This document shows positions 44,942 through 61,488 of a stretch of DNA of 64,000 bases, in pieces. How positions within the stretch are numbered: the stretch's first letter is position 1; each line of letters begins with the position of its first letter. Under the pieces are notes generated by a model. The model worked only from the letters and a program-made list of their open reading frames with translations, ran no database searches and was not told the origin of the DNA. The position numbers and the translations under genes are program-made. Source of the stretch: Paludibacteraceae bacterium (GTDB lineage: Bacteria > Bacteroidota > Bacteroidia > Bacteroidales > Paludibacteraceae); NCBI GenBank assembly GCA_017962005.1, contig JAGCWE010000131.1:10068-74067 (forward strand), given 5' to 3'.

Positions 44942-45027
44942 GCCTCTCATCGGACTTTTACAGTGGTCTGACAGAAGTTTTGCAATATTTTTTACGGGTT
45001 AAAATTGTATATGGCATTTATTTCTTG

Positions 45028-45035: not shown

Positions 45036-45062
45036 CGCGTTTGATTGATTGTGTTCTGTAAG

Positions 45063-46256: not shown

Positions 46257-47419
46257 GTTATCCGCTTCTTCCATATTCGCAGTTGGTGTTCGATTTGCTC
46301 AGGACCAATCCGGACGTGTACTGGACTTGTTTCTGTATGCGGCTGGATAAGAAGAAGGTGGATGTCGGGCGCTTGAAGCGGGCGATGGAACAGGCCATTC
46401 GGAATCATCCTGTTTTCTTTATGCGTGTGGACGGGAGCGGACAGCAGCGGTATGAACCCCGGCCCGATATGCTGCATGGTCAGTATTATTCGGTGGATTT
46501 TGTGGAAGACGGGCAGTTCGTGGATGTGCGTGTGAGAAAGAACCGCATATTGGGCGACGGGCGGAGCGATCGTCTTATTATGGAGGATGTGATGCGAGCG
46601 TATTGCAATTTGCCGCTGGAGCACGATGATTATCTGGATTATTTGCAGCGTGTTGAGCAGGAGAGGCAGTCTCCGCGTTATCAGCGGAACCGGCAATGGC
46701 TGGAATCGGAATATGGGCAGCTGTCTTGTCCTGTTCATCCGGTGACGGACGTACCGGTTGACATGGCGGATATGGAGGAAGAGGGCATGCTGACGGAAGA
46801 TTATAGCCCGATGCGGTCAGACTTGAACCGCTTGGGCGAAGAGCGGCTTGTTACATTGACGGCATTCTTCTCGCTTGCGTCCGCGTTGGCAATGATGGAG
46901 TATAACGACTGCAACGAAGCGGCATTGACGTGGGCGTATGAAGGTCGTGAGCGTCCCGAAGAGCAGCGCATCTTTGGAAGTCTGCACCGCGATATTCCCT
47001 TCCAAATCAAAAATTTGAAATCAGAAAAAATCGTACCCTTTAAGGGTAAAGAAATCAGAAATCAGAAATCGGATTTGATCCGACAGGCTCGTAATCAAAT
47101 CCGCTCCGGCATTGCGCATAGTGGTTATCCGTTTACGCTTGTTTGTCCGCATACGGATATTTGGAACTATGCGTTGAATGTGTTGGAGCAGTCTTCAATG
47201 CAGGCGAAGATGGCGGATGTGCCGTTCCCGTTCGAAGTGTATGAGCTGGAAGATGCGCCGCATGTGGCGTATTCGTTGATGGATGTGGAGATTTATAATG
47301 AAGAGCGGTTGCTGGTCATGTATCGCTATTCCGCTACGCATTACAAGGAATCGTCTGTCCGCCGCTTTGCGGCATTGGTGAGAAAATATGCCGGATGGCT
47401 ATTGGAAGATGAAGGATAA
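46253..47419 (+). CDS. Condensation-domain-fold protein with degenerate catalytic motif
   Basis: The GTG start overlaps the upstream stop (GTGA). The N-terminal half resembles an NRPS C-domain or PapA-type acyltransferase, but the HHxxxDG position reads NRILGDG. It contains a low-complexity insert, FQIKNLKSEKIVPFKGKEIRNQKSD. Confidence 0.4.
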   Translation: MSYPLLPYSQLVFDLLRTNPDVYWTCFCMRLDKKKVDVGRLKRAMEQAIRNHPVFFMRVDGSGQQRYEPRPDMLHGQYYSVDFVEDGQFVDVRVRKNRILGDGRSDRLIMEDVMRAYCNLPLEHDDYLDYLQRVEQERQSPRYQRNRQWLESEYGQLSCPVHPVTDVPVDMADMEEEGMLTEDYSPMRSDLNRLGEERLVTLTAFFSLASALAMMEYNDCNEAALTWAYEGRERPEEQRIFGSLHRDIPFQIKNLKSEKIVPFKGKEIRNQKSDLIRQARNQIRSGIAHSGYPFTLVCPHTDIWNYALNVLEQSSMQAKMADVPFPFEVYELEDAPHVAYSLMDVEIYNEERLLVMYRYSATHYKESSVRRFAALVRKYAGWLLEDEG

Positions 47420-48542
47420 AAGGGATATGGTGGAAATCTTGCGGCAGTTGCTGGCAGCCGATTCAGCCTTGCTGCAGCTTGCTGGGCAGTCGCTGGCGCA
47501 GGCGGCGCGGGCGAATCCGCACCTGCGCACCAATCCCGTGCGCTCGTTGGATGACTGGTTCGCTTATCTGGAGCGTTTCCTGCATCGGATGCCTTGGCAG
47601 ACGATGGATATAGGTGAAGACGCCTCCTTCTTCCGCCGCATAGACCAGAATATAGGCTATTTCTATTTCCTCATCGACCAGCCCCTCGATGCCCTCAGGA
47701 ACTGCGGTTATATCTGGCCTTCGTTGCAATACGAACCGCGCATTGCGGCATGGCTTGTGGACTACAACAAGGCTTGGGGCGAATGGCTGGGTGGTGCGGA
47801 TAGTTGGAATGATGAATATTACCGGTTGGCGCGTACGGACAGCCGCTTTGAATTGGATACCGACCGCTATGAGTCACCCGATAACTGGCACTCATGGAAT
47901 GATTTCTTTGCCCGCAGACTGCGCCTTCCCCCTTTCAATTTTCCACTTTCCACTTTCCACTTTCCGCTTTCCACTTTCCACTTGACCGCTCCTTGCGACG
48001 GTGTACTGATGAACTATCCTGTGAAGACAATGAGTACGGATCATCTGCAGGACTTGTTGGGCGGCAGCCCCTGTGCGGAGAGGTTTGAAGGAGGAGAGGC
48101 GGTGCATATAGTGCTTGATGTCTTCGACTATCATCGTTTCCATGCGCCGTGTGCGGGCAGGGTGGTGGAGCGGAAGATTATACCTGGTATCCATGCCGGC
48201 GGCGGAGTCATTATCTGGGATGAGGCGGAAGGACGCTACCGCTATGAGCAGTGTGGTGCCACGGACTTCCAATCGCTTGAGACCCGCGGAGTGCTGGTGT
48301 TGGATACACCCGGCTTCGGTCACATTGCGCTTGTCGCCGTAGGTGTCCAGCAGGTCAGTTCGGTTGTCTGGTCCTCCAATCTTCAATCTTCAATCATAAA
48401 TCATAAATCCCCAATCCGTCTCTCGCAGGGAGACGAGTTGGGGTCCTTCCTCTTCGGTGGCAGCGATATCGTTCTTCTCTTCGAACCGGGTAAGGCCCCG
48501 CGTATTACCGAGAAATCGGTTAAAGTAGGGGATATCTTATAA
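47409..48542 (+). CDS. Phosphatidylserine-decarboxylase-family (pyruvoyl-dependent) decarboxylase with long N-terminal extension
   Basis: PSD-family blocks are WNDFFARRL ... APCDG ... HRFHAP ... GDELGSFLFGGSDIVLLFE, with GGS at the self-cleavage position. The start is uncertain (47388, 47409 or 47427). Two heptamer tracts lie inside the gene. Confidence 0.7.
   Translation: MKDKRDMVEILRQLLAADSALLQLAGQSLAQAARANPHLRTNPVRSLDDWFAYLERFLHRMPWQTMDIGEDASFFRRIDQNIGYFYFLIDQPLDALRNCGYIWPSLQYEPRIAAWLVDYNKAWGEWLGGADSWNDEYYRLARTDSRFELDTDRYESPDNWHSWNDFFARRLRLPPFNFPLSTFHFPLSTFHLTAPCDGVLMNYPVKTMSTDHLQDLLGGSPCAERFEGGEAVHIVLDVFDYHRFHAPCAGRVVERKIIPGIHAGGGVIIWDEAEGRYRYEQCGATDFQSLETRGVLVLDTPGFGHIALVAVGVQQVSSVVWSSNLQSSIINHKSPIRLSQGDELGSFLFGGSDIVLLFEPGKAPRITEKSVKVGDIL
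47941..47982. repeat. Heptanucleotide tract (TTCCACT)x6, one variant unit, in frame within the decarboxylase gene
   Basis: TTCCACT x3, TTCCGCT, TTCCACT x2 make 42 nt and encode FPLSTFHFPLSTFH. Confidence 0.9.
48375..48416. repeat. Heptanucleotide-period tract (nnCAATC / nnAAATC x6) in frame within the decarboxylase gene
   Basis: TCCAATC TTCAATC TTCAATC ATAAATC ATAAATC CCCAATC, encoding SNLQSSIINHKSPI. Confidence 0.85.
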
Positions 48543-48592
48543 AAAATCGGATAAGTCCGCGATTTTTCTTGCATATATCATATTATTTGTAG

Positions 48593-48600
48593 TACTTTTG
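48593..48600 (+). promoter_or_regulatory. -7 promoter box TACTTTTG
   Basis: It lies 64 nt upstream of the ATG at 48664. Confidence 0.55.
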
Positions 48601-48663
48601 CAGCGAATTTTACGTAACGAACTTTTCGACACGACAAAAGTGTTACTGTAATTGGGTATTATT

Positions 48664-49800
48664 ATGACTATTAAAAACACCATTACAAACCCTTTCTCCA
48701 TATTGTCTTATTTAGGACCTGAATATTTTTGCGACCGTCAAAAGGAAACGCAAGATTTGAGAAATGCGTTGTATAATGGACGGAATGTGACTCTCTCTAG
48801 TCCGCGTAGAATGGGTAAAACTGGGTTGATACAACATCTCTTTCAGCAAATTCCGGCGAAAGAGGCCCACTGCTTTTATGTGGATCTCTATCATACCAAA
48901 AACATGTCAGACTTCACTAAAGCTTTTGCGGAGGCCGTTCTTTCACAGCGTATGACGCCGTTCATAGAGCGTGTCGGTAAAGAGATTATGCAATTCTTTG
49001 GATCTGTACGTCCTGTGTTTACACCTGATCCTATTACCGGTTCGATGCAATGTACGGTGGATATTCAACCGCGGAATGAAGAAATGACATTGCAACAAAT
49101 ATTCGCCTATCTGGAACAATCTAAACAGCGTTGTTATGTGGCTTTTGACGAGTTCCAGGAGATAGCAGATTACTCGGATGGAAAAGCTGAAGCCATATTA
49201 CGTACGTATATTCAACAGCTGAAAAATGTGCAGTTCATTTTTGCCGGAAGCAAAAGGCATATTATGACGCAGATGTTCTTGTCTCCCAAACGTCCATTTT
49301 TTCAAAGCACTCAATTAATGAGCATTGGTGCTATTGATGAAAAGCTTTATTATACCTTTGCTTCCAAACATTTTGAATTACATAATCAGCATATGGATGA
49401 GACAACTTTTCATGAATTATACTCCTTAGTTAACGGACATACATGGTATATGCAGGCGTTGCTGAATAAAATATATCAGAATGGCTCTATGGAAATCTCA
49501 AATGATGATATGCTTCTGGCGCTAAATCAGTGGATCGAGGAAAATACACCTGCATATCATACTTATTGCCGCTTAATCACTGATCGCCAATTTGATGTAA
49601 TGCGCGCGGTGGCAAAAGAAGGAGTTGTAACTGAACCCGGAAGCAGTGCATTCTTGCAGAAATATCACTTGGGTGCATACAGCACGGTGCGAAGCGCTAT
49701 CTTGGCACTTGATGAAAAAGAATTGCTCTATTGCGATACAGATGGTAACTATAGCGTCTATGATCGCTTTTTCGGTTTATGGCTACAGAGACAATACTGA
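48664..49800 (+). CDS. AAA ATPase (archaeal-ATPase / DUF234-type 'ATP-binding protein')
   Basis: Walker A reads SPRRMGKTGL and Walker B is VAFDEFQE. The C-terminal DUF234-like region contains YSVYDRFF. Confidence 0.65.
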   Translation: MTIKNTITNPFSILSYLGPEYFCDRQKETQDLRNALYNGRNVTLSSPRRMGKTGLIQHLFQQIPAKEAHCFYVDLYHTKNMSDFTKAFAEAVLSQRMTPFIERVGKEIMQFFGSVRPVFTPDPITGSMQCTVDIQPRNEEMTLQQIFAYLEQSKQRCYVAFDEFQEIADYSDGKAEAILRTYIQQLKNVQFIFAGSKRHIMTQMFLSPKRPFFQSTQLMSIGAIDEKLYYTFASKHFELHNQHMDETTFHELYSLVNGHTWYMQALLNKIYQNGSMEISNDDMLLALNQWIEENTPAYHTYCRLITDRQFDVMRAVAKEGVVTEPGSSAFLQKYHLGAYSTVRSAILALDEKELLYCDTDGNYSVYDRFFGLWLQRQY

Positions 49801-49820
49801 CCACTGATAACTGACCACTT

Positions 49821-50564
49821 ATGAAACGATATGCATTAGTGACTGGCGCAAGCCGGGGAATAGGAAGAGCCATTGCCGTTGAGTTGGCAAAGGACGGCTG
49901 TTCTATTCTGTTGAATTATAAATCCAATCACGCTGCGGCGGAAGAAACTCTGCGTCTCATTGAAGCAACTGGCGGCGAAGCGGAACTGATGCCCTTTGAT
50001 GTCAGTCAGCCTGATGCCGTCAATGCTGCCTTGGACAAATGGTTTTCAGCCCATCCGGATGAGTATATTGACGTGCTGGTGAACAACGCCGGTATCGTGG
50101 ATGACGAGATTATGCTCCTGATGGAGCCGGAGCAGTGGCATCGTGTCATTGATGTCAACCTCAACGGCTTCTTCTATTGCACCCGCCGCGTGATAGAGGG
50201 CATGGTGGAGAACCATCACGGACGTATCGTCAATATATCTTCTATAGCAGGACAAAAAGGTCATCCGGGGCAAGTAAATTATGCAGCAGCAAAGGCTTCT
50301 CTTATTGGCGCGACAAAAGCATTGGCAACGGAATTGGCGACTAAACAGGTGACAGTCAATGCTGTGTCACCGGGCTTGGTGGAAACGGATATGGCAGAAA
50401 AAGTTGCAGAATATTTACCGGAGCGTATGCGTGATATCAATAGCATCCCCATGCGCCGCCTCGGTAAACCGGAAGAAGTTGCATATCTTGTATCTTTCCT
50501 CTGTAGTAATCGCGCCGACTATATCTCCGGACAAGTAATCGGCATCAATGGTGCCGCATTATAA
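49821..50564 (+). CDS. fabG: 3-oxoacyl-ACP reductase (SDR family)
   Basis: Diagnostic motifs are TGASRGIGRAIA, NNAG, and the S...YAAAK catalytic triad. Confidence 0.85.
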   Translation: MKRYALVTGASRGIGRAIAVELAKDGCSILLNYKSNHAAAEETLRLIEATGGEAELMPFDVSQPDAVNAALDKWFSAHPDEYIDVLVNNAGIVDDEIMLLMEPEQWHRVIDVNLNGFFYCTRRVIEGMVENHHGRIVNISSIAGQKGHPGQVNYAAAKASLIGATKALATELATKQVTVNAVSPGLVETDMAEKVAEYLPERMRDINSIPMRRLGKPEEVAYLVSFLCSNRADYISGQVIGINGAAL

Positions 50565-50566
50565 AA

Positions 50567-50613
50567 GCTGAAAACTGACCACTGGCAACTGAATACTGAA
50601 AACTGACCACTTC
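50567..50613. repeat. Heptanucleotide-period intergenic spacer (ACTGAnn x7)
   Basis: GCTGAAA ACTGACC ACTGGCA ACTGAAT ACTGAAA ACTGACC ACTTCCA, immediately before the KS1 ATG. The related spacer ACTGACCACTGATAACTGACCACTT precedes fabG (49796-49820). Confidence 0.8.
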
Positions 50614-50615
50614 CA

Positions 50616-51836
50616 ATGAAACGCGTAGTAATAACAGGCATGGGCATCTGGTCTTGCATAGGGCAGGATCTGCAGACCGTCACTGAGAGCCTTCGGATGG
50701 GACGCTCAGGAATCGGCGTGCGCCCGGAACGCAGGGCATTGGGCTATCACTCCTTGTTGACGGGCATTGTGCCACGCCCGGATTTGAAACCTTTGTTGAA
50801 TCGTCGTCTGCGCAATACGCTCTCTGAAGAGGCGGAGTACGCATGTATGGCTGTGCGTGAAGCGCTGATGAATGCCTATTTGGATGAAGACTATCGTATG
50901 CAAAATGAGATAGGTGTCGTGTTTGGTAATGACACCTCCAATCAGTCTGTAGTGGATTCGTATGTGACCGCGAAAGAGGCAGGTGATACCTTTATTTTGG
51001 GCTCCGGTATGGCGTTTCAGGCACTCACCGGCAATGTGGCGATGAATATGGCGAATATCTTCCATCTGCGCGGAGCAAATTTTACGACGGCATCTGCATG
51101 CGCTTCCGGCGCACAGGCAATCGCTTTGGCGGCGATGCTCATCCAAACAGGGCAACAAGACATCGTGGTGGCTGGAGGTGCGCAGGAGACCAACGACAAG
51201 TCCATGATTGCTTTTGATGGAGTCAACACCTTGTCCAAGCGCAACGATGACCCGCAGCATGCCTCGCGTCCGTTCTGTAAACAGCGGGACGGACTGGTGC
51301 CGGGCGGAGGCGCGGCCGCGCTTGTCTTGGAGGAATATGAACACGCCGTTGCCCGTGGAGCGCATATCGTGGCGGAGATTGCGGGATATGGATTCTCGCA
51401 GAACCTGACTCCGCTTGGCCAGCCCTCTGCAGAAGGCGAATATGAAGCGATGGTACGCGCCTTGCGGAATGCTGGTCTGAATCCGCAAGATATAGATTAT
51501 GTCAATGCCCATGCCACTTCCACGATGGCAGGAGATATGGCGGAGGCCGAAGCCTTGACACGATTGTTTGGCAGGAAACCGTTTGTGTCCTCCACGAAGT
51601 CGATGACCGGACATGAATGTTGGATGGCGGGGGCGAGCGAGACGGTATACAGTGTTCTTATGATGCAGCATGACTTTATAGCCCTGAATATCAATATCGC
51701 CGAGTTGGACGATGCTGCCAAAGACCTCAGTATCGTTCGTGAGCCTTTGGAGGCAAAGATAAATATCGCTCTCTCCAATTCCTTTGGTTTCGGCGGTACG
51801 AATTTCACTTTGGTTTTTAAAAAGCCCAACGTCTGA
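50616..51836 (+). CDS. Beta-ketoacyl-ACP synthase (KS1), catalytic Cys-His-His intact
   Basis: Active-site Cys in TASACASGAQAI, first His in NAHATST, Lys in SSTKS, second His in TGHECWMAGA. The terminal block is FGFGGTN. Confidence 0.85.
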   Translation: MKRVVITGMGIWSCIGQDLQTVTESLRMGRSGIGVRPERRALGYHSLLTGIVPRPDLKPLLNRRLRNTLSEEAEYACMAVREALMNAYLDEDYRMQNEIGVVFGNDTSNQSVVDSYVTAKEAGDTFILGSGMAFQALTGNVAMNMANIFHLRGANFTTASACASGAQAIALAAMLIQTGQQDIVVAGGAQETNDKSMIAFDGVNTLSKRNDDPQHASRPFCKQRDGLVPGGGAAALVLEEYEHAVARGAHIVAEIAGYGFSQNLTPLGQPSAEGEYEAMVRALRNAGLNPQDIDYVNAHATSTMAGDMAEAEALTRLFGRKPFVSSTKSMTGHECWMAGASETVYSVLMMQHDFIALNINIAELDDAAKDLSIVREPLEAKINIALSNSFGFGGTNFTLVFKKPNV

Positions 51837-51868
51837 CAAAATAGTGGTCAAACCTCTAATATCTATAT

Positions 51869-52132
51869 ATGACAAAGCAAGAGATTATTGAAAAGACGAA
51901 TGCCTTTCTTGTTGAAGAATACGAGAAAGATCCGGCGTTGCTTGCACCAGAAGCGCGTTTCCGCGAAGATTTAGACTTGAACAGTCTGGACTACATGGAT
52001 TTGATGGTCACTGTCAAACGGGTCTTTGGGGTTATGCCTGCTCCGGCAGAGATGAACCTCGTGGTGACATTAGGTGATTTCTACAATTTCATCGAGCGCA
52101 AACTGTCTGAACTGCCCCCATCCAATGAGTGA
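51869..52132 (+). CDS. Acyl carrier protein (ACP1)
   Basis: 87 aa with the phosphopantetheine-site motif DLDLNSLDYMDL. Confidence 0.8.
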   Translation: MTKQEIIEKTNAFLVEEYEKDPALLAPEARFREDLDLNSLDYMDLMVTVKRVFGVMPAPAEMNLVVTLGDFYNFIERKLSELPPSNE

Positions 52133-53579
52133 CAATAACCGACATACAGCCTGTATCATTGGCGGCGGCATGAGTGGTTTGTTTACCGGTGCACTGCTTG
52201 CCAGGAACGGTTATAAAGTGACCGTTCTGGAGAAAAACCACATCATCGGCGGAGGACTGCAATCCTTCCGCCGTGGTGATGCGGTGTTCAATACCGGTAT
52301 GCAATCTTTTGCCGGATATATGCCCAATATGATTAGCCTTCAATTTTGCAAATATTGTAGGGTGGATGATTTACTTGATGTTATGCCGACAGACGAGAAC
52401 CAACAGGAAATAGTATGGGTGGATAATCAGACAAATTATCGTCTTCCCAAAGGACGAGAGGCATACCAATCTTATCTAATCAAAATGTTTCCGCAAGAGG
52501 AAAAGGGAATTGGAGATTTAATGGATGCCGTATTCTACATAGGTCATACGTATGATTACCTGTTTCTTAACCCAATTCGGCGTCATGAGGAAAACATCCC
52601 GTATGCCTATATGAATGCATATGATTTTATTCTGCAATATGTCCATAATGAGCAATTAATCTCTGTTTTTGAATATGTATCTTGGACTACGGGACCCAGT
52701 TTGAAAGCCATGCCTGCGTTAGAGTTCTGTATGATGCTTACATTGTATATAATTGGTTCTCATCGCTTTGTGGGGGGTACAAAACAAATGGTGGATGCAT
52801 TTTGTCATGTGATTGAAAAAACGGGAGGAAAGGTGTATAATGAAACGGAAGTTTGTAAAATAAATGTTGAGAATGGCCGTGTTGTAGAGCTTATTGATAC
52901 AAATGGTAAAAAATGGGGGAGTGATGTTTATGTTTGGGCTTGTACGCCTAAAATTTTATTAGATGCCTGCAATGCGCCTGTATTCAGACTTGCTATGACT
53001 CAAAGAGTCAGAGAGTTTGTCAATCCCTTTACAATGTATATTGTATTTTGTAAACTAAAGCCAAAAAGATTCCCTTTTATCAATAGTGCAGTTTATATGC
53101 CTCGTCCATCGGATAAATCATACCTTCCGCAATCAATAGTCCTTGTGACTTCCCCGCACAGAAATCAAAACCAATGGGCACAGACAGCAGAAATATATAT
53201 ACCGGCTTGTTATGAGGAGTTGGGCAAGTGGGAGAATACAAAAGTACAGGATCGCGGTAGATTCTATGAGGAACATAAGAATCAAGTTGCTCGGAAAGCT
53301 TTGGATATGGTCTCTAATTTCTATCCGGATATAACAGATGCCGTTATGGATATAAACGTAGCGTCAGCTTTAACTATACGGGATTATTATGGTAATCCTC
53401 ATGGCGCTACGTACGGACAGCAGGGATTGTACCTGCCAATAAAAACCAAGGTGGCAAACTTATTCATGACAGGTCAAGCAGTGCAAAATCAAGGAATAGC
53501 TGGTATCGCAACTGCTGCAACACTTACAGCGGAAACTATACTTGGGAAAAGTATAATAGATGAAATAGCAAAAGCATAA
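52125..53579 (+). CDS. FAD-dependent oxidoreductase of the phytoene-desaturase (CrtI-like) family
   Basis: I set the start at MSDNNRH (an 8-nt overlap with ACP1). The dinucleotide fold reads CIIGGGMSGLFTGALLARNGYKVTVLEKN. The TAATG stop/start overlaps KS2. Confidence 0.75.
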   Translation: MSDNNRHTACIIGGGMSGLFTGALLARNGYKVTVLEKNHIIGGGLQSFRRGDAVFNTGMQSFAGYMPNMISLQFCKYCRVDDLLDVMPTDENQQEIVWVDNQTNYRLPKGREAYQSYLIKMFPQEEKGIGDLMDAVFYIGHTYDYLFLNPIRRHEENIPYAYMNAYDFILQYVHNEQLISVFEYVSWTTGPSLKAMPALEFCMMLTLYIIGSHRFVGGTKQMVDAFCHVIEKTGGKVYNETEVCKINVENGRVVELIDTNGKKWGSDVYVWACTPKILLDACNAPVFRLAMTQRVREFVNPFTMYIVFCKLKPKRFPFINSAVYMPRPSDKSYLPQSIVLVTSPHRNQNQWAQTAEIYIPACYEELGKWENTKVQDRGRFYEEHKNQVARKALDMVSNFYPDITDAVMDINVASALTIRDYYGNPHGATYGQQGLYLPIKTKVANLFMTGQAVQNQGIAGIATAATLTAETILGKSIIDEIAKA

Positions 53580-54838
53580 TGAAACGCGTTGTCGTAACAG
53601 GAATGGGAATATGGTCATGTATTGGACAAGACCTGCAAACAGTAACTGAAAGCCTTCAACAAGGGGGGTCGGGAATTGTTTTCGACCCTAAACGTATTGA
53701 ATACGGTCTCCAATCCGGTTTGGTAGGCAATGTGCCTCATCCGGATTTGAAACCTTTGTTGCCCCGTAAATTTCGTGCTACGATGTCTGAAGATGCCGAA
53801 TATGCCTATATGGCTGCCTGTCAGGCATTCGGGCATGCGCATATTCAGAAAGATTATCTGTTGCACAATGATGTGGGTGTTCTATGGGGAAATGACAGCG
53901 GAACTTCCACTGTGGTTGCAGCGATGAATGCCATGAACCAACACCATGATTCGTTTATGATAGGACCTTCTTGCCTGTTCCAAGGTGGAGCGTCAAGTGT
54001 TGTGATGAATCTGAGTACCATTTTCCATTTGCGCGGATGTGGAATAACGACAGCCGCCGGGTGTGCCAGTTCTTCCCATGCAATAGGAATGGCTTTTGTT
54101 TTAATTCAGACCGGTAAGCAAGATGTGATATTGGTAGGTGGCTCCTCAGAACTTCATCCTCTAATGACGGCAACATTCGATGCAACCAATATATTGTCTC
54201 TCCGCAATGAAGAACCGACTCATGCTATGCGCCCGTATGATGCGGAGCGAGACGGTACGGTTTTCAGCGGAGGAGCTGCGGCTTTGGTGCTCGAAGAATA
54301 CGAACATGCCGTAGCACGCGGAGCAACCATACTCGCCGAAGTATGCGGCTATGGATTTTCATCGAATGGTATCGATGAAATCTCCATGCCATCCGCAGAT
54401 GCGGAATATATCGCCATGAAGCGTGCTATCGAAGATGCTGGAATGCAGCCCTCCGATATTGATTATGTCAATGCCCATGCCACTTCCACTATTGCTGGTG
54501 ATGCCGAGGAAGCTAAAGCCCTGACACGCCTGTTTGTGGAAGAGAATCAAATCATAAATCATCAATCTGCAATCATAAATAGGAAACCCTATGTTTCCTC
54601 CACCAAGTCCATAACCGGTCATGAGAACTGGATGGCGGGTGCCAGCGAGGCGGTGTATAGCGTTCTCATGATGCAAAACGGCTTTGTCGCACCCAATATC
54701 AATCTGGGGCACAAAATTGATGAAGCGAAGGATCTCAATATCGTCACAGAAACCGTCTATACCCCCATCAACACCGTCCTGTCCAACTCCTCCGGCATGG
54801 GGGGCACGAATAGCGCGCTTGTGTTTCGAAAAATATAG
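53579..54838 (+). CDS. Beta-ketoacyl-ACP synthase (KS2), carrying a 13-aa low-complexity insert
   Basis: Diagnostic motifs are AAGCASSSHAI, NAHATST and TGHENWMAGA. The insert VEENQIINHQSAIIN lies between LTRLF and RKPYVSSTKS, relative to KS1. Confidence 0.85.
   Translation: MKRVVVTGMGIWSCIGQDLQTVTESLQQGGSGIVFDPKRIEYGLQSGLVGNVPHPDLKPLLPRKFRATMSEDAEYAYMAACQAFGHAHIQKDYLLHNDVGVLWGNDSGTSTVVAAMNAMNQHHDSFMIGPSCLFQGGASSVVMNLSTIFHLRGCGITTAAGCASSSHAIGMAFVLIQTGKQDVILVGGSSELHPLMTATFDATNILSLRNEEPTHAMRPYDAERDGTVFSGGAAALVLEEYEHAVARGATILAEVCGYGFSSNGIDEISMPSADAEYIAMKRAIEDAGMQPSDIDYVNAHATSTIAGDAEEAKALTRLFVEENQIINHQSAIINRKPYVSSTKSITGHENWMAGASEAVYSVLMMQNGFVAPNINLGHKIDEAKDLNIVTETVYTPINTVLSNSSGMGGTNSALVFRKI
54550..54584. 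repeat. Heptanucleotide-period tract (AATCnnn) inside KS2
   Basis: AATC recurs at 54550, 54557, 54564 and 54571. The tract lies in a 92-nt block (54515-54606) identical to 57105-57196 in KS4. Confidence 0.85.
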
Positions 54839-54931
54839 CCCATCTGGAATATATAGAGCATATGGAAAGCAGATTGAATCTAAAAAACAAATCCTAAAAA
54901 ACAATTGACAACGGATAACGTACAAATTTCA

Positions 54932-56161
54932 ATGAGGCGTGTCGTCGTAACAGGTATGGGTATTTGGTCTTGCATTGGGCAGGACTTGCAAACCGTGACA
55001 GAGAGTCTTAAGCAAGGTCGTTCCGGAGTCATCTTTGATCCGAAACGTGTTGAGTATGGTCTTCATTCCGGTCTTGTAGGCAATGTGCCCCGTCCGGATT
55101 TGAAGCCTTTGCTACCTCGCAAGTTCCGCGCAACGATGTCCGAAGATGCAGAATATGCTTACATGGCTGCGTGTCAAGCACTGGAAAAATCCGGTATAAC
55201 CGATGAATATTTGCGTCAAAATGAGGTGGGGCTGATATTTGGGAGTGAAGGCGCAACAGATTGCATTGTACAAGCAGCGGACATAATGGCGCAGGAGAAG
55301 GAGGTTACAGCATTACAGCCAAATATGTTGTTCCAAAGCGAAGCATCCTCTGTCTCGATGAATTTGAGTACGATTTTTCACATAAAAGGAATCAACTTGA
55401 CCATTAGTGCTGCATGTGCAAGTTCTTCGCATGCGATTGGTTTGGCGACGACGTTGATAAGAGATGGTATGCAGGATAGTATTCTTGTCGGAGGCTGTTG
55501 TATGTTGTCTGAAGTAAGCGCACCTGTTTACGATGCTATTAATGGCTTATCCAGAAGGAACGATAGTCCGCATAAGGCTTCCTGTCCTTTCGATGAGGCA
55601 CGTGATGGTATCGTCCATTCCGGAGGAGCAGCTGCTTTGATGCTTGAGGATTATGAGCATGCGATTGAGAGAGGAGCCGATATATTTGCAGAAATTGTAG
55701 GAATAGGAGTATGTAGCAATGGAGATGAAATCTCTGCCCCTACCACGATGAAAGTGGATGTGGCTATGCAGCGGGCAATAGCAGATGCCGGAATAGAGGC
55801 AGGTGATTTGGATTATATATGTCCAATGGCAGCTTCGTTAATCAATGAGGATGAGTATGAGGCGATAGCGATTGACAGACTGTTCCGGGATAAAAAGGCG
55901 TATGTCTCATCTACCGAATCTATGACCGGACATGAGAATTTCATGGCAGGTGCGTCTAAAACGGTATATACTATATTGATGATGCTGAATAATTTCATAG
56001 CGCCCAATATCAATTTGAAGACACCTTCTGAAGCGGCAAAAAATCTCCGGATCGCAAAGCAAACAATCCAAACTCCGATTCAATATGCAATGATTAATGC
56101 ATCTGGATTGGGAGGAACCAATTGCTGTATTGTAGTTAAAAATTATTCGAAAAGTAGTTGA
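54932..56161 (+). CDS. Ketosynthase-like protein (KS3) with degenerate catalytic His and Lys (CLF-like partner?)
   Basis: The Cys is retained (SAACASSSHAI). The first His block NAHATST is replaced by CPMAASL, and SSTKS by SSTES. The second His is retained (TGHENFMAGA). Confidence 0.75.
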   Translation: MRRVVVTGMGIWSCIGQDLQTVTESLKQGRSGVIFDPKRVEYGLHSGLVGNVPRPDLKPLLPRKFRATMSEDAEYAYMAACQALEKSGITDEYLRQNEVGLIFGSEGATDCIVQAADIMAQEKEVTALQPNMLFQSEASSVSMNLSTIFHIKGINLTISAACASSSHAIGLATTLIRDGMQDSILVGGCCMLSEVSAPVYDAINGLSRRNDSPHKASCPFDEARDGIVHSGGAAALMLEDYEHAIERGADIFAEIVGIGVCSNGDEISAPTTMKVDVAMQRAIADAGIEAGDLDYICPMAASLINEDEYEAIAIDRLFRDKKAYVSSTESMTGHENFMAGASKTVYTILMMLNNFIAPNINLKTPSEAAKNLRIAKQTIQTPIQYAMINASGLGGTNCCIVVKNYSKSS

Positions 56162-56165
56162 GACT

Positions 56166-57428
56166 ATGCGTAGGAGAGTTGTCGTCACAGGAATCGGGAT
56201 CTGGTCGAGTATCGGACAGAATCTTCAAACTGTCAGCGAGAGCCTTAAACAAGGGCGTTCCGGAATTGTTTTTGATTCGGAACGGATTGACTACGGCATG
56301 CGTACCGCGCTAATAGGAAATGTTCCTCTGGCTGATTTGAAACCATTATTACCGCATAGCCAAAGAGCTACCATGACTGAAGATGCGTGCTATGCGTATA
56401 TGGCCGCTCGTCAAGCATTTGAACAAGCGCGAATGGATGATGCATTTTTGCGAACAAACGAAGTGGGAGTCATCTTCGGAAATGATGGTAATTCCAGTGG
56501 TACAGAAGTGTCACCTGTTATGCGAAAGGAGAAAGACTCGGAAATGGTGGGTCCCTATTTATTATTTGCGGATCACACCTCATCACCGGTATTTCATTTA
56601 AGTTCCTTGTTTCATTTGAGAGGTGTAAGTTATAGTGTGGATGCAGCATGTTCTTCATCATCTCATGCAATAGGAATCGCCTCTGTTCTGATTCGTAACG
56701 GGATACAATCTACGATATTGGTAGGAGGCTCTATGGAGGTACATAGATTGCCTTTCTTTGCGGAGATGGATGTTGCAGATATGCTGTCTCGTCGTAATGA
56801 AGAACCGGAAAAAGCATCTCGCCCATTCGACCAAGATCGAGATGGTATGGTTCCTTCTGGTGGCGCAGCAGCTTTAGTTTTAGAAGAATACGAGCATGCC
56901 GTAGCACGCGGCGCAACTATTTTGGCGGAAGTGGCAGGCTACGGCTTCTCCTCCAACGGTATAGAAGAAATATCCATGCCTTCCGCCGATGCGGAGTTCA
57001 TCGCCATGAAACGTGCTATCGCAGATGCCGGACTGCAACCTTCTGACGTCGACTACGTCAACGCCCATGCCACTTCCACTCTCGCGGGCGACATCGAGGA
57101 AGCCAAAGCCCTGACACGCCTGTTTGTGGAAGAGAATCAAATCATAAATCATCAATCTGCAATCATAAATAGGAAACCCTATGTTTCCTCCACCAAATCC
57201 ATGACAGGCCATGAAAACTGGATGGCGGGTGCCAGCGAGGCGGTATATAGTATTCTCATGATGCAAAACAATTTTGTCGCACCCAATATTAATCTCGAAA
57301 ACGTCATCGACGAAGCCAAAGACCTCAATATCGTCCGCAAGACGGTCTATACCCCCGTCCGTACCGTTCTTTCCAACTCCTCCGGCATGGGAGGTACCAA
57401 TAGCGCGTTGGTTTTTAGAAAAATATAA
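56166..57428 (+). CDS. Beta-ketoacyl-ACP synthase (KS4), same 13-aa insert as KS2
   Basis: Diagnostic motifs are DAACSSSSHAI, NAHATST and TGHENWMAGA. The C-terminal half is highly similar to KS2, including VEENQIINHQSAIIN. Confidence 0.85.
   Translation: MRRRVVVTGIGIWSSIGQNLQTVSESLKQGRSGIVFDSERIDYGMRTALIGNVPLADLKPLLPHSQRATMTEDACYAYMAARQAFEQARMDDAFLRTNEVGVIFGNDGNSSGTEVSPVMRKEKDSEMVGPYLLFADHTSSPVFHLSSLFHLRGVSYSVDAACSSSSHAIGIASVLIRNGIQSTILVGGSMEVHRLPFFAEMDVADMLSRRNEEPEKASRPFDQDRDGMVPSGGAAALVLEEYEHAVARGATILAEVAGYGFSSNGIEEISMPSADAEFIAMKRAIADAGLQPSDVDYVNAHATSTLAGDIEEAKALTRLFVEENQIINHQSAIINRKPYVSSTKSMTGHENWMAGASEAVYSILMMQNNFVAPNINLENVIDEAKDLNIVRKTVYTPVRTVLSNSSGMGGTNSALVFRKI
57140..57174. repeat. 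Heptanucleotide-period tract inside KS4 (copy of the KS2 tract)
   Basis: It has the same sequence as 54550-54584. Confidence 0.85.
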
Positions 57429-57484
57429 CGTCTAACCTCTAACCTCTAACAACAAAGTGGTCTGACATCTAACTTCTTATTTAT

Positions 57485-57727
57485 ATGGATACGCAAGAAA
57501 TTCAATCAAAGGTAAATGCCTTTATGAACAATCGTCTGGAGTATGATGCAGAACGCCTCACTCCTGAAACAGAATTGAAACGCGACCTTGGCATGACGTC
57601 TCTCGATGCTGTGGAGACCTCTCTTTTCATTAAGCGCACCTTCGGCTTTCAGCCGGAACGTGGTGTGATGAAGACCATAGGAACGCTCCAGGATCTGTAT
57701 GATTACATCGAAGATCATCAAGGATGA
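57485..57727 (+). CDS. Acyl carrier protein (ACP2)
   Basis: 80 aa with the motif DLGMTSLDAVE. Confidence 0.8.
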   Translation: MDTQEIQSKVNAFMNNRLEYDAERLTPETELKRDLGMTSLDAVETSLFIKRTFGFQPERGVMKTIGTLQDLYDYIEDHQG

Positions 57728-57845
57728 TAGTGTATGGTGTGCATGTTTCCGAAAAATACGGAAAGATTTTTGAATTATTTCCGCGAAACAATGACAATTT
57801 TTGAAAAGTCATAGTAAAATATTTGGATATATTCCTGAAGAGTTG

Positions 57846-57853
57846 TAATTTTG
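57846..57853 (+). promoter_or_regulatory. -7 promoter box TAATTTTG for the AbiE module
   Basis: It lies 27 nt upstream of the ATG at 57880. Confidence 0.55.
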
Positions 57854-57879
57854 CAGCGTTTTTGGAATGAAACGCAGAA

Positions 57880-58500
57880 ATGACATACACACAATTCTAT
57901 AATCAATGGCACTCGTTAGGTTGTTTTTCGGTAAACCAAGTGCATGCTATCGTACCGACTTTCAATAGGTCGAACCTTCACCAATGGCAGAAAGCCGGAT
58001 ACATCGTTCCTCTTCGGAAAGGATGGTATGCATTTGCCGATTATGTGCAACAGCCGGATTATGCTCGGTATTTTGCAGGTAAGATATGCGCTCCGTCGTA
58101 CATCAGTCTGCATACTGCATTATCTTTCTATGGTATAATTCCGGAGGCTGTGGTAGAGATAACGAGCGTGACGACGCAAAAGACGTGCCGATACAAGAAC
58201 GCGTTTGGCCAGTTCAGTTATCAGACGGTTCGTCCGCGGTTATTCTGGGGCTTTGAACCTAAGACGATGCGGGATGGAAAGCAATATATGATGGCTACAC
58301 CGGAGAAGGCGATTATCGACTTGCTGTACCTCTATCCACAATATGCGACAGTAGAAGAGATGCGGGAGTTGCGGTTGGATGAGGAATGGATGCAGGAAGA
58401 GTTTGACAAAGAGCGGTTGATGAGTTATGTGGAGCGGATAGGAAGTCCGATAATAAAGAAAAAAGTGCGTTTGCTTTTAAATGCGTACGAAATTAGATAA
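57880..58500 (+). CDS. AbiEi-family type IV antitoxin / transcriptional regulator
   Basis: The N-terminal wHTH-like AbiEi_4-type region reads FSVNQVHAIVPTFNRSNLHQWQKAGYIVPLRKGWYAF. A cognate AbiEii gene follows. Confidence 0.75.
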   Translation: MTYTQFYNQWHSLGCFSVNQVHAIVPTFNRSNLHQWQKAGYIVPLRKGWYAFADYVQQPDYARYFAGKICAPSYISLHTALSFYGIIPEAVVEITSVTTQKTCRYKNAFGQFSYQTVRPRLFWGFEPKTMRDGKQYMMATPEKAIIDLLYLYPQYATVEEMRELRLDEEWMQEEFDKERLMSYVERIGSPIIKKKVRLLLNAYEIR

Positions 58501-58528
58501 ACGAATAGCTCATTGCTGAAAACAGAAC

Positions 58529-59311
58529 ATGATTGACATGGAATACATACGGGGATTTTACCCCCCGTACATTGCCCTGAATGCAAACATGCAGAAGCAT
58601 ATGCTGAAGGAGTATGTGGAGTTGTTGGCGCTGGAGTGGATAACCCGTTCTCCGTATGCGGCGAAATTGGTGTTCATCGGAGGTACGAACTTGCGGTTGA
58701 TACAGGGTATTGACCGGTTCTCAGAGGACTTGGATTTTGATTGCAAAGGGCTGAGCGAGGAAGAGTTCCGGCGGATGTCGGATGAGTTGGTGAAATACCT
58801 GCAACAGCATGGATTGAACGCAGAGTTGCGCAACAAGGAGAATACGCGGTTGATGGCATTTCGCAGCAATGTGTATTTCCCGGAACTGCTGTTTGACTTG
58901 CAACTAACCGGTCATCGGGAGGAACGTTTTCTGATGAAGATAGAGGCGCAGGATCAAAGAACGGATTATCCTCGTGAGATGGCTATTATGCAGCGGAACG
59001 GGTTCTCGTTCCCGGTGCCGGTGCCACCGTTGAGCGTACTGCTATCGATGAAACTATGTGCACTACTGGCGCGGCAGAAAGGAAGGGATTTCTATGACAC
59101 GATGTTTCTGATGCAGCGGACAGAGCCGGATTATGGCTTCTTGCTGAATCAGAAGGGGATTGCGAACAAGGAGCAATTGGATGCTGCCCTACGGGAGATG
59201 GTAAGCAAGACCGATATGAAGACCAAACAGCGCGACTTTGAGCACTTGCTGTTCGATAGCCGCAAGAGCGAGACGATACTGGAATTTATTAGACTGACCT
59301 CTGTCATATGA
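58529..59311 (+). CDS. AbiEii/AbiGii-family nucleotidyltransferase toxin
   Basis: NTase motifs are FIGGTNLRLIQGIDRFSEDLDFDC. It is 260 aa. Its stop overlaps the ACP3 start (ATGA). Confidence 0.8.
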   Translation: MIDMEYIRGFYPPYIALNANMQKHMLKEYVELLALEWITRSPYAAKLVFIGGTNLRLIQGIDRFSEDLDFDCKGLSEEEFRRMSDELVKYLQQHGLNAELRNKENTRLMAFRSNVYFPELLFDLQLTGHREERFLMKIEAQDQRTDYPREMAIMQRNGFSFPVPVPPLSVLLSMKLCALLARQKGRDFYDTMFLMQRTEPDYGFLLNQKGIANKEQLDAALREMVSKTDMKTKQRDFEHLLFDSRKSETILEFIRLTSVI

Positions 59312-59556
59312 CAAAGCAAGAAATAATACAACAGACCAACGCGTTTTTCAGCGACAGACTGGATTCTGACATGTCGCATGTCACTCCGGATACGGAACTC
59401 AAACATGATTTGGGAATCACCAGTGTCGATGCCGTAGCCATCGCCTCTTTTGCACAAAAATCTTTCGGCTGTCCCGTCATCATGTCCGAAATCAAAGCCA
59501 TCATCACAATGGATGATCTCTACAACTATATTGAGAAGAATGGTAAATTATCTTGA
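59308..59556 (+). CDS. Acyl carrier protein (ACP3)
   Basis: 82 aa with the motif DLGITSVDAVA. The 5' end (ATATGACAAAGCAAGA...) resembles that of ACP1. Confidence 0.8.
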   Translation: MTKQEIIQQTNAFFSDRLDSDMSHVTPDTELKHDLGITSVDAVAIASFAQKSFGCPVIMSEIKAIITMDDLYNYIEKNGKLS

Positions 59557-60952
59557 CATCCTTGCTGAAACTATCCGCAATAACTGGGATCAGCCTGCCC
59601 TTACGGATTTCTACCTCACCGAAGACGGTAAGGCTCAAGACACCTCACGCGGTAACCGTTACACCTACGGCGAGATGTATGCAGAGATTGTCCGCGTCGC
59701 CGATTTTCTCACACAACTTGGTTTGCAAGCCGGCGACCATATTGCTATTTGCGGCGCCAATTCTGCCCACTGGGTTATTTCCTACCTCGCCATCGCCAAG
59801 ATGCAAGATGTGTCTGTCGCCATCATGCATACCCTTCAACCGGATCAGATTGCGCAGATGATCAATTTCTCCGATGCCAAAGCGTTGTTTATAGATAAGG
59901 AATTATGGGAAGAATTAAAACAACAATCGTTGCCAAGGGTGGCGAGTGTGATTGCGTTGGAAGATTGGATTGTACTATACGGGCATCGAATAAGAATAAA
60001 TGACAATAATCAATTAACAATTAACAATGACCAATGCCAATTCATCCATGGTGAACTTGACGAATTGGCAATGCTCTGTTTCACCTCTGGTTCATCAGGA
60101 AAACCGAAAGGGGTGATGCTGTCATATAGGAATATTCATTCATCAGTACGTTGCGTTGGAGATACATATCCTGTCAATAAGAACAGAAACACTTTAGCGT
60201 TAATTTCTTTGTCACATCTTTTAGGTTTTGGTAGTACTTTGGTACAACTAACCAAGTGTTGTCATATATTTATTCTTCGGCAGTCAAATGATTTTGTCCG
60301 TTTGCCTCAAATCATATGGATAGTGCAACCTTATGTGTTATTCGGAGTTCCTCAATTATTAGCAATAGCTGCTAAAATGTGGAATCAGAAAAAAATGTTA
60401 TTTTTGGAGAGTTTTGTTGTAGGTGGTGCTGTTGTCTCTGATGTGCTGTGCCGCCAACTAAAGGAGGTGGCGTTCCCATTAGCGACAGGATATGGGGCTA
60501 CAGAATCAAGTGGAACAATCAGTCTTGCATCTGCTCTCTCTTTTCGAGAAGAGTCTTCTGGGAAAGTCGTTGAAGGTTGTAGTGTTAGCATCGCTCCTAA
60601 CGGTGAAATTCTTGTCAAAGGTGAAAATGTCATGTTGGGCTATTATAAAGATCCAGAAGCGACGGCGCAAAAGATAGACAAGGACGGTTGGCTCCATACT
60701 GGCGATAAGGGACATCTGGACGAGGATGGCTATCTCTATGTGGAAGGTCGTTTGGAGCAGGACATCATCGTTCTTCCCAACGGCGAGAACATCCGTCCGG
60801 ATGCTATTGAATCCCTCATCAATGCGCTGCCTGAGGTCTCCGACTCCATCGTCTTCGCCCGTGATGGTCACCTCATCGCAATAGTCGTACCACCAATCAC
60901 CAATCACCAATCACCAATGCGGATTTACGCCGCAGCATATTGCGTGCGATAA
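59540..60952 (+). CDS. AMP-dependent synthetase/ligase (acyl-ACP or acyl-CoA ligase-like); reading frame leaves the conserved C-terminus at a (CACCAAT)4 tract
   Basis: ANL motifs are FTSGSSGKPKGV, GYGATESSG and GWLHTGDKGHLDEDGYLYVEGR. I set the start at MVNYLDIL. After the tract the frame gives PMRIYAAAYCVR-stop, while the conserved tail lies in another frame. Confidence 0.75.
   Translation: MVNYLDILAETIRNNWDQPALTDFYLTEDGKAQDTSRGNRYTYGEMYAEIVRVADFLTQLGLQAGDHIAICGANSAHWVISYLAIAKMQDVSVAIMHTLQPDQIAQMINFSDAKALFIDKELWEELKQQSLPRVASVIALEDWIVLYGHRIRINDNNQLTINNDQCQFIHGELDELAMLCFTSGSSGKPKGVMLSYRNIHSSVRCVGDTYPVNKNRNTLALISLSHLLGFGSTLVQLTKCCHIFILRQSNDFVRLPQIIWIVQPYVLFGVPQLLAIAAKMWNQKKMLFLESFVVGGAVVSDVLCRQLKEVAFPLATGYGATESSGTISLASALSFREESSGKVVEGCSVSIAPNGEILVKGENVMLGYYKDPEATAQKIDKDGWLHTGDKGHLDEDGYLYVEGRLEQDIIVLPNGENIRPDAIESLINALPEVSDSIVFARDGHLIAIVVPPITNHQSPMRIYAAAYCVR
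59988..60044. repeat. Heptanucleotide-period tract (CAATnnn x~8) in frame inside the ligase gene
   Basis: CAAT recurs at 60004, 60011, 60018, 60025 and 60032. The tract encodes RINDNNQLTINNDQCQ. Confidence 0.8.
60891..60918. repeat. Perfect heptanucleotide repeat (CACCAAT)x4
   Basis: Four perfect units of 28 nt, which is not a multiple of 3. The tract sits exactly where the ligase frame and the conserved C-terminal frame diverge. Confidence 0.95.
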
Positions 60953-61056
60953 ATCCGCAACTCCCTCTTTTCTCCCAGCTCTATGATGTGGAAATCACGG
61001 ATATCCCGCTACAAAGAACCGAAAAACAAACCCTCAAGAGGTATCTCTATAAATAA
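60916..61056 (+). other. Out-of-frame 3' segment encoding the conserved ligase C-terminus
   Basis: The alternative frame reads NADLRRSILRAINPQLPLFSQLYDVEITDIPLQRTEKQTLKRYLYK-stop. This is the expected ANL C-terminal subdomain ending, including the conserved Lys-containing T-x-K-x-x-x-K-R block. Confidence 0.7.
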
Positions 61057-61078
61057 AAGCGCAGTAAAATGCGCTTTT
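61055..61078 (+). terminator. Rho-independent terminator of the biosynthetic operon
   Basis: Stem AAAAGCGC/GCGCTTTT with an 8-nt loop, then a T-tract. Confidence 0.65.
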
Positions 61079-61102
61079 CAGTTGCAGATCTCAAAAAAGC
61101 TG

Positions 61103-61110
61103 TACCTTTG
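61103..61110 (+). promoter_or_regulatory. -7 promoter box TACCTTTG for hipBA-1
   Basis: It lies inside direct repeat copy A, 73 nt upstream of 61183. Confidence 0.5.
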
Positions 61111-61182
61111 CGGCGATTAAGATACTATATTATCCGTTACTTGTAATAGTAAGCTGTAAGGCACATAATAATATCTCTTATA

Positions 61183-61488
61183 ATGTACTCATTCGGACAA
61201 ATATCATCGGGAGAATTGATGCAACAATTGGCAGAGCGGTTGAAAGCAAGGCGGTTGGAAAAAGGCTTGTCACGTCCGGCATTGGCGGGACTGTCCGGTG
61301 TCCCGGCTCCTACGATTGCGCGTTTTGAGCAGCGGTATGCGATATCCATGCGGCAGTATATTGACTTGGCGATGGCTTTGGGGTATGCGGACCAGTTGCA
61401 GGTGCTGATGCAAGAGCCGATATACAGAACGATGGAGGAACTTGAAACGATAAAGCAGAATCAGCATCGCAAACGCGGTCGGGGATGA
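61183..61488 (+). CDS. hipB: XRE-family HTH antitoxin (HipB-like)
   Basis: HTH segment LSRPALAGLSGVPAPTIARFEQ. It overlaps the downstream HipA-family gene by 4 nt. Confidence 0.7.
   Translation: MYSFGQISSGELMQQLAERLKARRLEKGLSRPALAGLSGVPAPTIARFEQRYAISMRQYIDLAMALGYADQLQVLMQEPIYRTMEELETIKQNQHRKRGRG

Follow-up and report, generated by a model that had tools for sequence, protein, structure and literature searches.

How can simple repeats with a 7-nt unit persist inside the genes of conserved enzymes, and why should they crowd into one locus? These questions are raised by a 64-kb stretch of DNA, hereafter the window (positions 10,068 to 74,067 of the forward strand of contig JAGCWE010000131.1, assembly GCA_017962005.1), from a gut Paludibacteraceae bacterium. 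Ten tracts of tandem heptanucleotides lie there within the genes and at the gene junctions of a putative lipid-type biosynthetic cluster (table 1). According to Pfam profile matches, its co-directional genes encode, in order, an Lnb-like membrane protein, a condensation-domain protein, a PSD-like decarboxylase, an AAA ATPase (inserted), FabG, the KS protein KS1, a small open reading frame (ORF), an FAD oxidoreductase, KS2, KS3, KS4, ACP, an AbiEi/AbiEii-like pair (inserted), and an AMP-ligase. The tracts are probably heptanucleotide simple repeats of the same kind as the long simple sequence repeats (LSSRs) of many bacteria and the short tandemly repeated repetitive (STRR) sequences of cyanobacteria. 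They would be an old, inherited feature of a Paludibacteraceae cluster family, persisting by slippage in tolerant positions and acting as mutational hot spots.

Tandem heptamers concentrated in one cluster

Period-7 arrays were called with Tandem Repeats Finder (TRF) over the whole window. We obtained nine merged arrays in the interval 46001-61200 and one weak array in the other 48.8 kb, whereas 200 first-order Markov simulations gave a mean of 0.27 arrays for this interval and a maximum of 2. As in LSSRs and STRRs, the arrays are thus more frequent than base composition predicts. An independent lag-7 scan detected six strong runs in 46-61.5 kb and one elsewhere in the window, and among lags 4-12 no other excess was comparable to that at lag 7. 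The two methods delineate head-to-tail heptamer arrays, typical of LSSRs and STRRs, of 2.6-7.4 copies at ten sites. This substantiates the original prediction, made from the sequence, of a period-7 tract family in a locus of about 15 kb. The first 45 kb of the window, described there as devoid of such tracts, are nearly so, the sole TRF array outside the locus being a weak one of 2.3 copies at 42767. The readable DNA of this species amounts to about 66 kb (the window and contig L008; L-numbers denote compared contigs or loci and P-numbers homolog proteins), of which the non-cluster part holds none or one weak array; a further 10 kb downstream in the same species is without period-7 tracts. When the window and six relative loci were considered as seven species-level loci, the cluster carried 0.63 tracts/kb (42 in 66.4 kb) and the flanks 0.06/kb (6 in 99.2 kb; binomial p ~1e-11). 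As first proposed, the tracts are unusually concentrated in the cluster relative to its flanks.

The tracts form a related family, also in line with the original prediction: their units are rich in A, C, and T, and many share an AATC core. Pooled over eight loci, the units contain 43% A, 26% C, 25% T, and 6% G, and the G content of the tracts is 0-17%, versus 25% for the region. A strict period had been claimed throughout. It holds for the perfect CACCAAT x4, but in KS2 and KS4 the tract is degenerate, with 76% matches. Similarly, the tract first placed at 47034-47070 is heptameric in its AGAAATC x3 part, but its first 15 nt are a palindrome. This palindrome, TACCCTTTAAGGGTA, is translated, interrupts the condensation-domain heptamer tract, and occurs in this species only. 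The ATPase/FabG junction tract, which escapes TRF, does show the ACTGAnn periodicity first ascribed to it and is identical in five same-species contigs.

Coding and junction tracts are built from different units. The tracts inside the KS, PSD-like, condensation-domain, and ligase genes lie in frame, and the others fill or overlap gene junctions, an arrangement that had been recognized correctly. Coding tracts consist of G-poor units that are stop-free in every frame and, because three units make 21 nt, all frames of such a tract encode one cyclic heptad. The junction units ACTGAnn and CTCTAAC contain TGA or TAA in all three frames, and the junction tracts overlap upstream stop codons and abut the next start codons. 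In the ATPase/FabG tract, positions 49798-49800 are the TGA that terminates the AAA ATPase gene, and positions 49808-49814 read exactly TAACTGA; its last base lies 1 nt ahead of the FabG ATG (49821). The FabG/KS1 tract stops 2 nt short of the KS1 ATG. The distribution of the two unit classes, with and without stops, is exactly the one expected from simple coding constraints. At the RNA level, nine of the ten tracts fall among the 2.5% least-structured 40-nt windows of the operon, with minimum free energies of 0 to -0.2 kcal/mol (0.0 for the ATPase/FabG tract).

Within the proteins, the coding tracts seem to occupy tolerant positions. Placed on a PSD model and on KS and ligase alignments, the inserts fall either in predicted coil with a low predicted local distance difference test (pLDDT) score or at insertion positions relative to solved homologs. 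In an AlphaFold model of the PSD-like decarboxylase, site 1 belongs to a 40-residue coil with a pLDDT below 50 (residues 159-200), which connects the beta domain with the N-terminal helical domain. For site 2, the model predicts a coil of low confidence before the GGS motif, the tract directly preceding the sequence GDELGxFxFGGS. A phmmer alignment to 1dd8 places the KS2 and KS4 tracts as a 13-residue insertion between ...VFGD and KSPAIS... of FabB. Ligase site 1 corresponds to an insertion of about 8 residues upstream of the P-loop relative to the 4-coumarate-CoA ligase 3a9u, and ligase site 2 comes after the AIVVP strand of the C-terminal domain.

The extra 13 residues of KS2 and KS4 had been identified from KS1, and the comparison with Escherichia coli FabB confirms them, but not as two separate events. 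The 3' halves of KS2 (54245-54837) and KS4 (56835-57427) are 82.7% identical, and the sequence block around the tract is identical, which suggests duplication or gene conversion between both genes. We therefore rejected independent insertions in favor of one event.

Table 1. Cluster, heptamer tracts, and nested or displaced segments in the 64-kb window.
Feature	Position	Strand	Composition and evidence
Biosynthetic cluster (predicted) hosting the heptamer tracts	45045..61059	+	Pfam matches and gene tables of same-species contigs L002, L003, and L008
Condensation-domain gene tract	47017..47074	+	degenerate AAATCAG-type units 47017-47033, AGAAATC x3 at 47050-47070; TRF and sequence
15-nt palindrome TACCCTTTAAGGGTA nested in condensation-domain tract	47034-47048	+	palindrome search
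PSD site 1 coding tract	47925..47983	+	CTTTCCA/TTCCACT x7.4 (TRF 47932-47983); translated FNFPLSTFHFPLSTFH
PSD site 2 coding tract	48375..48416	+	composite CAATCTT x2.7 (48377-48395) and AATCATA x2.6 (48392-48409); translated SNLQSSIINHKSP
ATPase/FabG junction tract	49796..49820	+	ACTGACC ACTGATA ACTGACC ACT; under TRF score threshold, periodic by eye
FabG/KS1 intergenic tract	50567..50613	+	CTGAAAA/CTGACCA x6.3 (TRF 50568-50611, unit CTGACAA); FabG stop to KS1 ATG (50616)
KS2 coding tract	54549..54584	+	AAATCAT-type, 4.6 copies (TRF 54549-54580), degenerate; translated QIINHQSAIIN
KS4 coding tract	57139..57174	+	AAATCAT, 4.6 copies (TRF 57139-57170); paralogous copy of KS2 tract
KS4/ACP intergenic tract	57426..57450	+	TAACCTC/CTCTAAC x3.6; after KS4 stop, 34 nt upstream of ACP ATG
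Ligase site 1 coding tract	59999..60044	+	CAATnnn, degenerate (TRF 59999-60036: AATGAAC x5.6 / ACAATTA x3.7); translated NDNNQLTINNDQ
Ligase site 2 coding tract	60891..60918	+	CACCAAT x4, perfect, 28 nt; TRF
Displaced ligase C-terminal 45 codons (DLRRSILRAINPQLPLFSQLYDVEITDIPLQRTEKQTLKRYLYK)	60919..61056	+	-1 frame versus upstream ORF

Orthologous sites with differing units

We read the DNA of seven other species-level loci (L001, L004, L005, L006, L135, L136, and L137). Period-7 arrays occur in these relatives at the orthologous coding sites, namely the condensation-domain site, PSD sites 1 and 2, the KS site, and ligase sites 1 and 2. Noncoding arrays are found at the condensation/PSD gene junction and, as ACTGAnn tracts, at other gene junctions (at 7730 and 14997 in L006). 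Orthologous arrays are often perfect copies, but with differing units: at PSD site 1, the window and its homologs use TTCCACT, AATCACC, CAATCAC (x5.1 perfect), AATTCTC (x4.6 perfect), and ATCAAAA. The condensation-domain site carries AAATCnn-type period-7 tracts in L004, L005, L006, L135, L136, and L137, and a tract of the KS2 type is also present in the KS gene of L006. At the protein level, all 36 aligned PSD homologs, 67-77% identical, show hypervariable peptides with a 7-residue periodicity at the N-terminus and at both internal tract sites (for example PITNHQSPI, FNFQLSAFNF, and HSFTHSLIHSF). Ligase site 1 likewise corresponds in homologs to heptad-like peptides such as ISNLQSPISN and IINHQSSIIN. 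The tract sites are common to all related clusters examined (>100 protein-cluster representatives), which argues for an old, inherited feature; the view that the tracts are insertions peculiar to this genome is not borne out.

Tract-free states are also observed. There is no 13-residue insertion in KS1, KS3, or E. coli FabB, and the ligase P0146 has no tract at site 2. Together with the sites shared by relatives, these sequence comparisons indicate that the tracts are insertions relative to the wider enzyme families, yet ancestral within this cluster family. They are not ordinary conserved linkers: in the alignment of orthologs, periodicity is present at the nucleotide level, and both unit and copy number vary between species. 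It follows for annotation that low-complexity peptides like ITNHQSP in Bacteroidales enzymes would be translated repeats and not functional motifs.

In the explanation that we consider probable, the tracts would have been established early in the cluster family. Each would be kept up and renewed as replication slippage adds or removes 7-nt units and point mutations accrue, so that orthologous sites keep a strict periodicity while the unit sequence drifts. Selection would act as a filter in genes, where only stop-free units, frame-keeping states, and positions in disordered linkers or surface loops survive, and the surviving coding tracts would be translated as heptad peptides, such as ITNHQSP and IINHQSA. 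Units with stops in three frames (ACTGAnn and CTCTAAC) would survive only at gene junctions, from the upstream stop to the next start. There, the G-poor, unstructured tract mRNA may aid downstream translation initiation in these Shine-Dalgarno-poor bacteria, or may be a by-product of unit survival. As the unit length of 7 cannot be divided by 3, each coding tract is a hot spot for frameshifts, and the ligase tract would have lost one unit in this genome, giving a truncated enzyme.

Several points weigh against this explanation. Slippage alone fails to account for the roughly ten-fold density of the cluster versus its flanks and for the first origin of tracts at about ten sites. In genes, the frame is kept only by three-unit changes or compensating pairs, so perfect coding arrays are harder to maintain by slippage than arrays in spacers. 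The coding tracts showed no variation among 2-8 same-species contigs, and slippage there is deduced from the between-species comparison. The benefit of unstructured leaders is a proposal, and the AlphaFold model of the PSD-like protein is of moderate confidence only (mean pLDDT 63).

Unit number and the ligase reading frame

Unit-number variation, a feature of LSSRs and STRRs, is observed between species at every site and within the species at the KS4/ACP intergenic tract. There, the window has one unit fewer, plus one single-nucleotide polymorphism, than seven other same-species contigs at ~99.9% identity. All other tracts are identical among the same-species contigs compared.

The coding tract with the clearest consequence is ligase site 2. 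It had been singled out as the one coding tract whose length is not a multiple of 3 nt, and it proves to cause a genuine frameshift. According to frame arithmetic and alignment, its four units throw the last 45 codons of the gene into the -1 frame. This displaced tail is 77-93% identical to the C-termini of >100 homologs, the whole protein being 58-65% identical, and the homologs read QITNHQSPITN in frame at this site. One unit more (5) or two fewer (2) restores the frame. As in contingency genes, an ORF contains a repeat with a unit length indivisible by 3, and a change of unit number at the ligase tract shifts the reading frame. The ligase of this species is annotated as an ordinary protein of 470 residues, yet it lacks the conserved C-terminus, which should serve as a warning for annotation. 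We set aside programmed -1 ribosomal frameshifting as a rescue of the ligase: the tract contains no X XXY YYZ slippery site, and no supporting evidence was found.

The four-unit state was found in all seven contigs examined, from six samples. No full-length ligase variant of this species was recovered in a 5.8-billion-protein search, although the contig look-up by exact protein was biased toward identical states. The frameshifted allele thus looks fixed in the sampled, nearly clonal population. Comparable events occurred elsewhere in the family. In L136, from another species, ligase site 2 shows the same one-unit-short frameshift, independently and with another unit (ACAAATC), its tail being intact. 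In L135 (homolog P0109), the unit AAATCTA created an in-frame TAA inside PSD site 2, downstream of which the sequence is still in frame. Overall, two of 120 ligase and one of 120 PSD representatives are disrupted at tracts.

Heptanucleotide repeats can act as switches. The phase-variable O-acetyltransferase gene neuO of E. coli K1 carries a long, translated heptanucleotide repeat at its 5' end, which varies between isolates. As in neuO, the tracts described here lie in enzyme genes and are translated as heptads when in frame, with a frameshift otherwise. They differ from it in being short and internal, and no on/off polymorphism was seen among same-species contigs. By analogy with neuO (mentioned in PMC13001214), reversible gain or loss of single units could toggle the cluster enzymes, and hence the lipid product, within populations. 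The 7-nt unit length, not being a multiple of 3, is in keeping with such a role, as are the OFF frame of the ligase, correctable by one unit and followed by a tail that is still well conserved, its counterpart in L136, and the one-unit difference between strains at the KS4/ACP tract. We nevertheless regard phase variation as unlikely. Coexisting ON and OFF repeat numbers were not detected, all seven contigs being OFF in a look-up biased toward identical states, and the coding tracts are invariant within the species. Disrupted representatives are rare across the family, and the tracts are short (3-7 units) and located in the middle or toward the 3' end of genes, not toward the 5' end. Should unit-number switching be found in reads, the cluster would represent a lipid pathway under phase variation in a gut commensal.

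We attach similarly little likelihood to a broader possibility, a maintained system of the cluster family. It would consist of distributed frameshift switches for steps of the lipid pathway, or else be the footprint of an undescribed mechanism that seeds or renews heptamer arrays and recruits translated hairpins, such as those described below, at defined gene positions. Such a system would explain both the ten-fold concentration and the persistence of the same sites over deep divergence.

Known heptamer repeats and heptamers beyond the cluster

To our knowledge, a pattern of in-frame heptamers at conserved sites, concentrated in one cluster, has no earlier description. Parts of it recall known repeats. 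STRR heptamers with the units CCCCAGT, TTGGTCA, and CAACAGT were reportedly described by Mazel et al. in 1990 in heterocystous cyanobacteria, and Elhai et al. are said to have found, in 2008, small dispersed repeats nested in them. Like STRRs (Mazel et al. 1990, cited in PMC4692102), the tracts are families of related tandem heptamers at many sites, and relatives of this cluster carry a small hairpin nested in tracts. The tracts stem from another phylum and, isolated CAATGAC units excepted, consist of other units: the host belongs to the Paludibacteraceae, and the units are AATC-core, ACTGAnn, TTCCACT, and CTCTAAC. A cyanobacterial origin of the cluster is not supported either, the only genome-collection locus, L001, and all three source-named ligase homologs being from Paludibacteraceae. 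The identical ligase at NCBI, "AMP-binding protein [Paludibacteraceae bacterium]," comes from a Paludibacteraceae metagenome-assembled genome (MAG), and the related cluster L001 was found in a red-deer Paludibacteraceae MAG. Positions 37409-58572 of the window are 99.9% identical to contigs from other samples, and the KS region had no megablast match in a plasmid collection.

Heptanucleotide repeats are given in secondary accounts as the most abundant class of long simple sequence repeats in many bacteria (Mrazek 2007, as cited in PMC4679880). LSSRs with 7-nt units are there described as over-represented, scattered in genes and spacers, and put down to polymerase slippage (Mrazek, Guo and Shah 2007, via PMC4679880 and PMC4692102). 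The tracts of the window are likewise head-to-tail heptamers, over-represented relative to chance and located in genes and spacers. In contrast to LSSRs, they are concentrated about ten-fold in one operon-like cluster, occupy orthologous sites across many species, and are mostly coding. The original prediction knew of no equivalent in Bacteroidales, which does not hold: five Bacteroidetes, Paludibacter propionicigenes among them, carry direct repeats of TAACTGA and other heptamers a short distance upstream of start codons (MacGregor 2015, PMC4679880), and TAACTGA repeats also adjoin start codons in Beggiatoaceae and cyanobacteria (PMC4679880). The bacterial family Paludibacteraceae is represented in both cases, and the Bacteroidales setting was partly anticipated (MacGregor 2015, PMC4679880). 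The junction tracts upstream of FabG and KS1 match these repeats in position and orientation. Built from nnACTGA variants that bring a stop into every frame, these junction tracts overlap the upstream stop and end 0-5 nt from the next ATG. Unlike in the published repeats, their units are variable (ACTGACC, ACTGATA, and ACTGAAA) and not strictly TAACTGA, which occurs exactly only once. The other eight tracts belong to different unit classes, most tracts of this locus being of the stop-free class inside genes.

Little work has been devoted to heptanucleotide repeats, although no other class of long simple repeat is as common in bacteria. About ten sites in hundreds of related clusters, with unit turnover, tract-free states, frameshifts, a tract-born stop, and nested hairpins, constitute a natural series from which one might learn how heptamer arrays originate, how they are kept within essential folds, and how they disrupt genes.

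Heptamer tracts also occur outside this cluster and this family. When metagenomes were scanned for (CAATCAC)x3, at least 120 contigs with a GC content of 20 to 71% matched, and among the matches listed none held the cluster. The metagenome contig L120 (GC 50%) carries, at 1900-9300, a heptamer-rich locus of an unrelated pathway with GH3, GH81, GH30, and DUF4857 genes. Its GH3 and GH81 frames contain several in-frame CACCAAT, TACCAAT, ACAAATC, and CAATCTT tracts, of which the units CACCAAT and CAATCTT also occur in the window, and the GH30 and DUF4857 frames contain period-7 tracts of other units.

Relatives of the cluster harbor a GC-rich hairpin element of about 55-85 nt (CGGAGCGTCYTCCCG...GGGARGA...TCCGCCGAGAAGGGCT) directly after CAATCACC inside translated heptamer tracts (L004:10946-11020; L006:10993-11043, the same in L007; L137:6881-6965). 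It is located at PSD site 2 in two species (L004 and L006) and at PSD site 1 in a third (L137), shows compensatory changes in its stem, and is translated in frame. It looks like a tiny mobile element targeting the tracts. We searched the window for this element and did not find it there. Palindromic elements of Rickettsia, reported by Ogata et al. in 2000, are said to be dispersed, about 100-150 nt long, and inserted in frame in protein genes. In both cases, repetitive DNA of a noncoding type is tolerated and translated in surface regions of conserved enzymes. The tracts differ in being tandem heptamers, and the likeness concerns mainly the nested hairpin of the relatives, not the window.

These observations bring to mind a mobile micro-element system, comparable to cyanobacterial STRRs and to the Rickettsia elements, that would seed arrays of heptamers where none existed and offer small hairpins a landing pad. 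The recurrence of units such as CAATCAC and AAATCAT at many sites and genes, and in unrelated contigs (the glycoside hydrolases of L120), would fit it. So would the hairpin at different PSD sites in different species and the palindrome interrupting the condensation-domain tract of the window. We nonetheless hold such a system to be improbable. The tracts are linked to neither a transposase nor another candidate enzyme, and their orthologous sites across species point to vertical inheritance and not to repeated insertion. Units are no more alike within than between genomes (2.67 versus 2.65; permutation 1108/2000), which leaves no signal of unit homogenization between sites of one genome by ectopic conversion. 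CAATCAC was rejected as a specially propagated heptamer: (CAATCAC)x3 gave 15 matches in viral contigs, and two controls of equal base composition gave 1 and 39.

The weakest alternative, that the tracts are selected RNA or DNA signals, either sites for translational or termination factors (S1, Csp, CsrA-like, or Rho) or for an operon regulator, with the coding copies being the same signal in tolerant loops, is improbable: it would account for tracts kept at the same sites across a deep family, for their strong G-poor, unstructured character, for a locus-specific enrichment, and for junction tracts that border start codons, as do the TAACTGA repeats, in whose case a post-transcriptional regulator was proposed by MacGregor (PMC4679880), but units are not conserved at several sites, the five units of PSD site 1 speaking against sequence-specific binding, the cluster encodes no candidate binding protein, and simple coding constraints already predict how the unit classes sort.

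The surroundings of the tracts vary as well. An AAA ATPase gene (ATPase_2/AAA_14; 48652-49800), the AbiEi/AbiEii-like pair (57880-59311), and an HTH and HipA-like pair (61183-62585) are inserted in or beside the cluster, and relatives carry other sets of such genes at other places in the cluster. Among solved structures, FabB is nearest to the four KS proteins. The PSD-like decarboxylase has a long N-terminal extension, and the deposited start of its gene lies seven codons downstream of the first ATG of the ORF. In the same-species contig L002 (14426-14431), about 37 nt are missing between KS1 and the small ORF relative to positions 51840-51870 of the window; this deletion is flanked by short TGACAA direct repeats. 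Arrays of 11/22/33-nt repeats (ATCTATCGTAT-type) lie in inverted orientation about 19.4 kb apart, at 25387-25616 and 44723-44936, the latter directly upstream of the first cluster gene, and further 22-nt repeat arrays adjoin both. Finally, the exact 12-mer AGTGGTCTGACA is present twice in the window (44962-44973 and 57456-57467), where 0.22 matches with at most one mismatch are expected by chance. Each copy follows closely on a tandem-repeat array and precedes the start of a gene, the first cluster gene and the ACP gene, respectively, and AGTGGTCTGACA may be a candidate promoter or operator motif.

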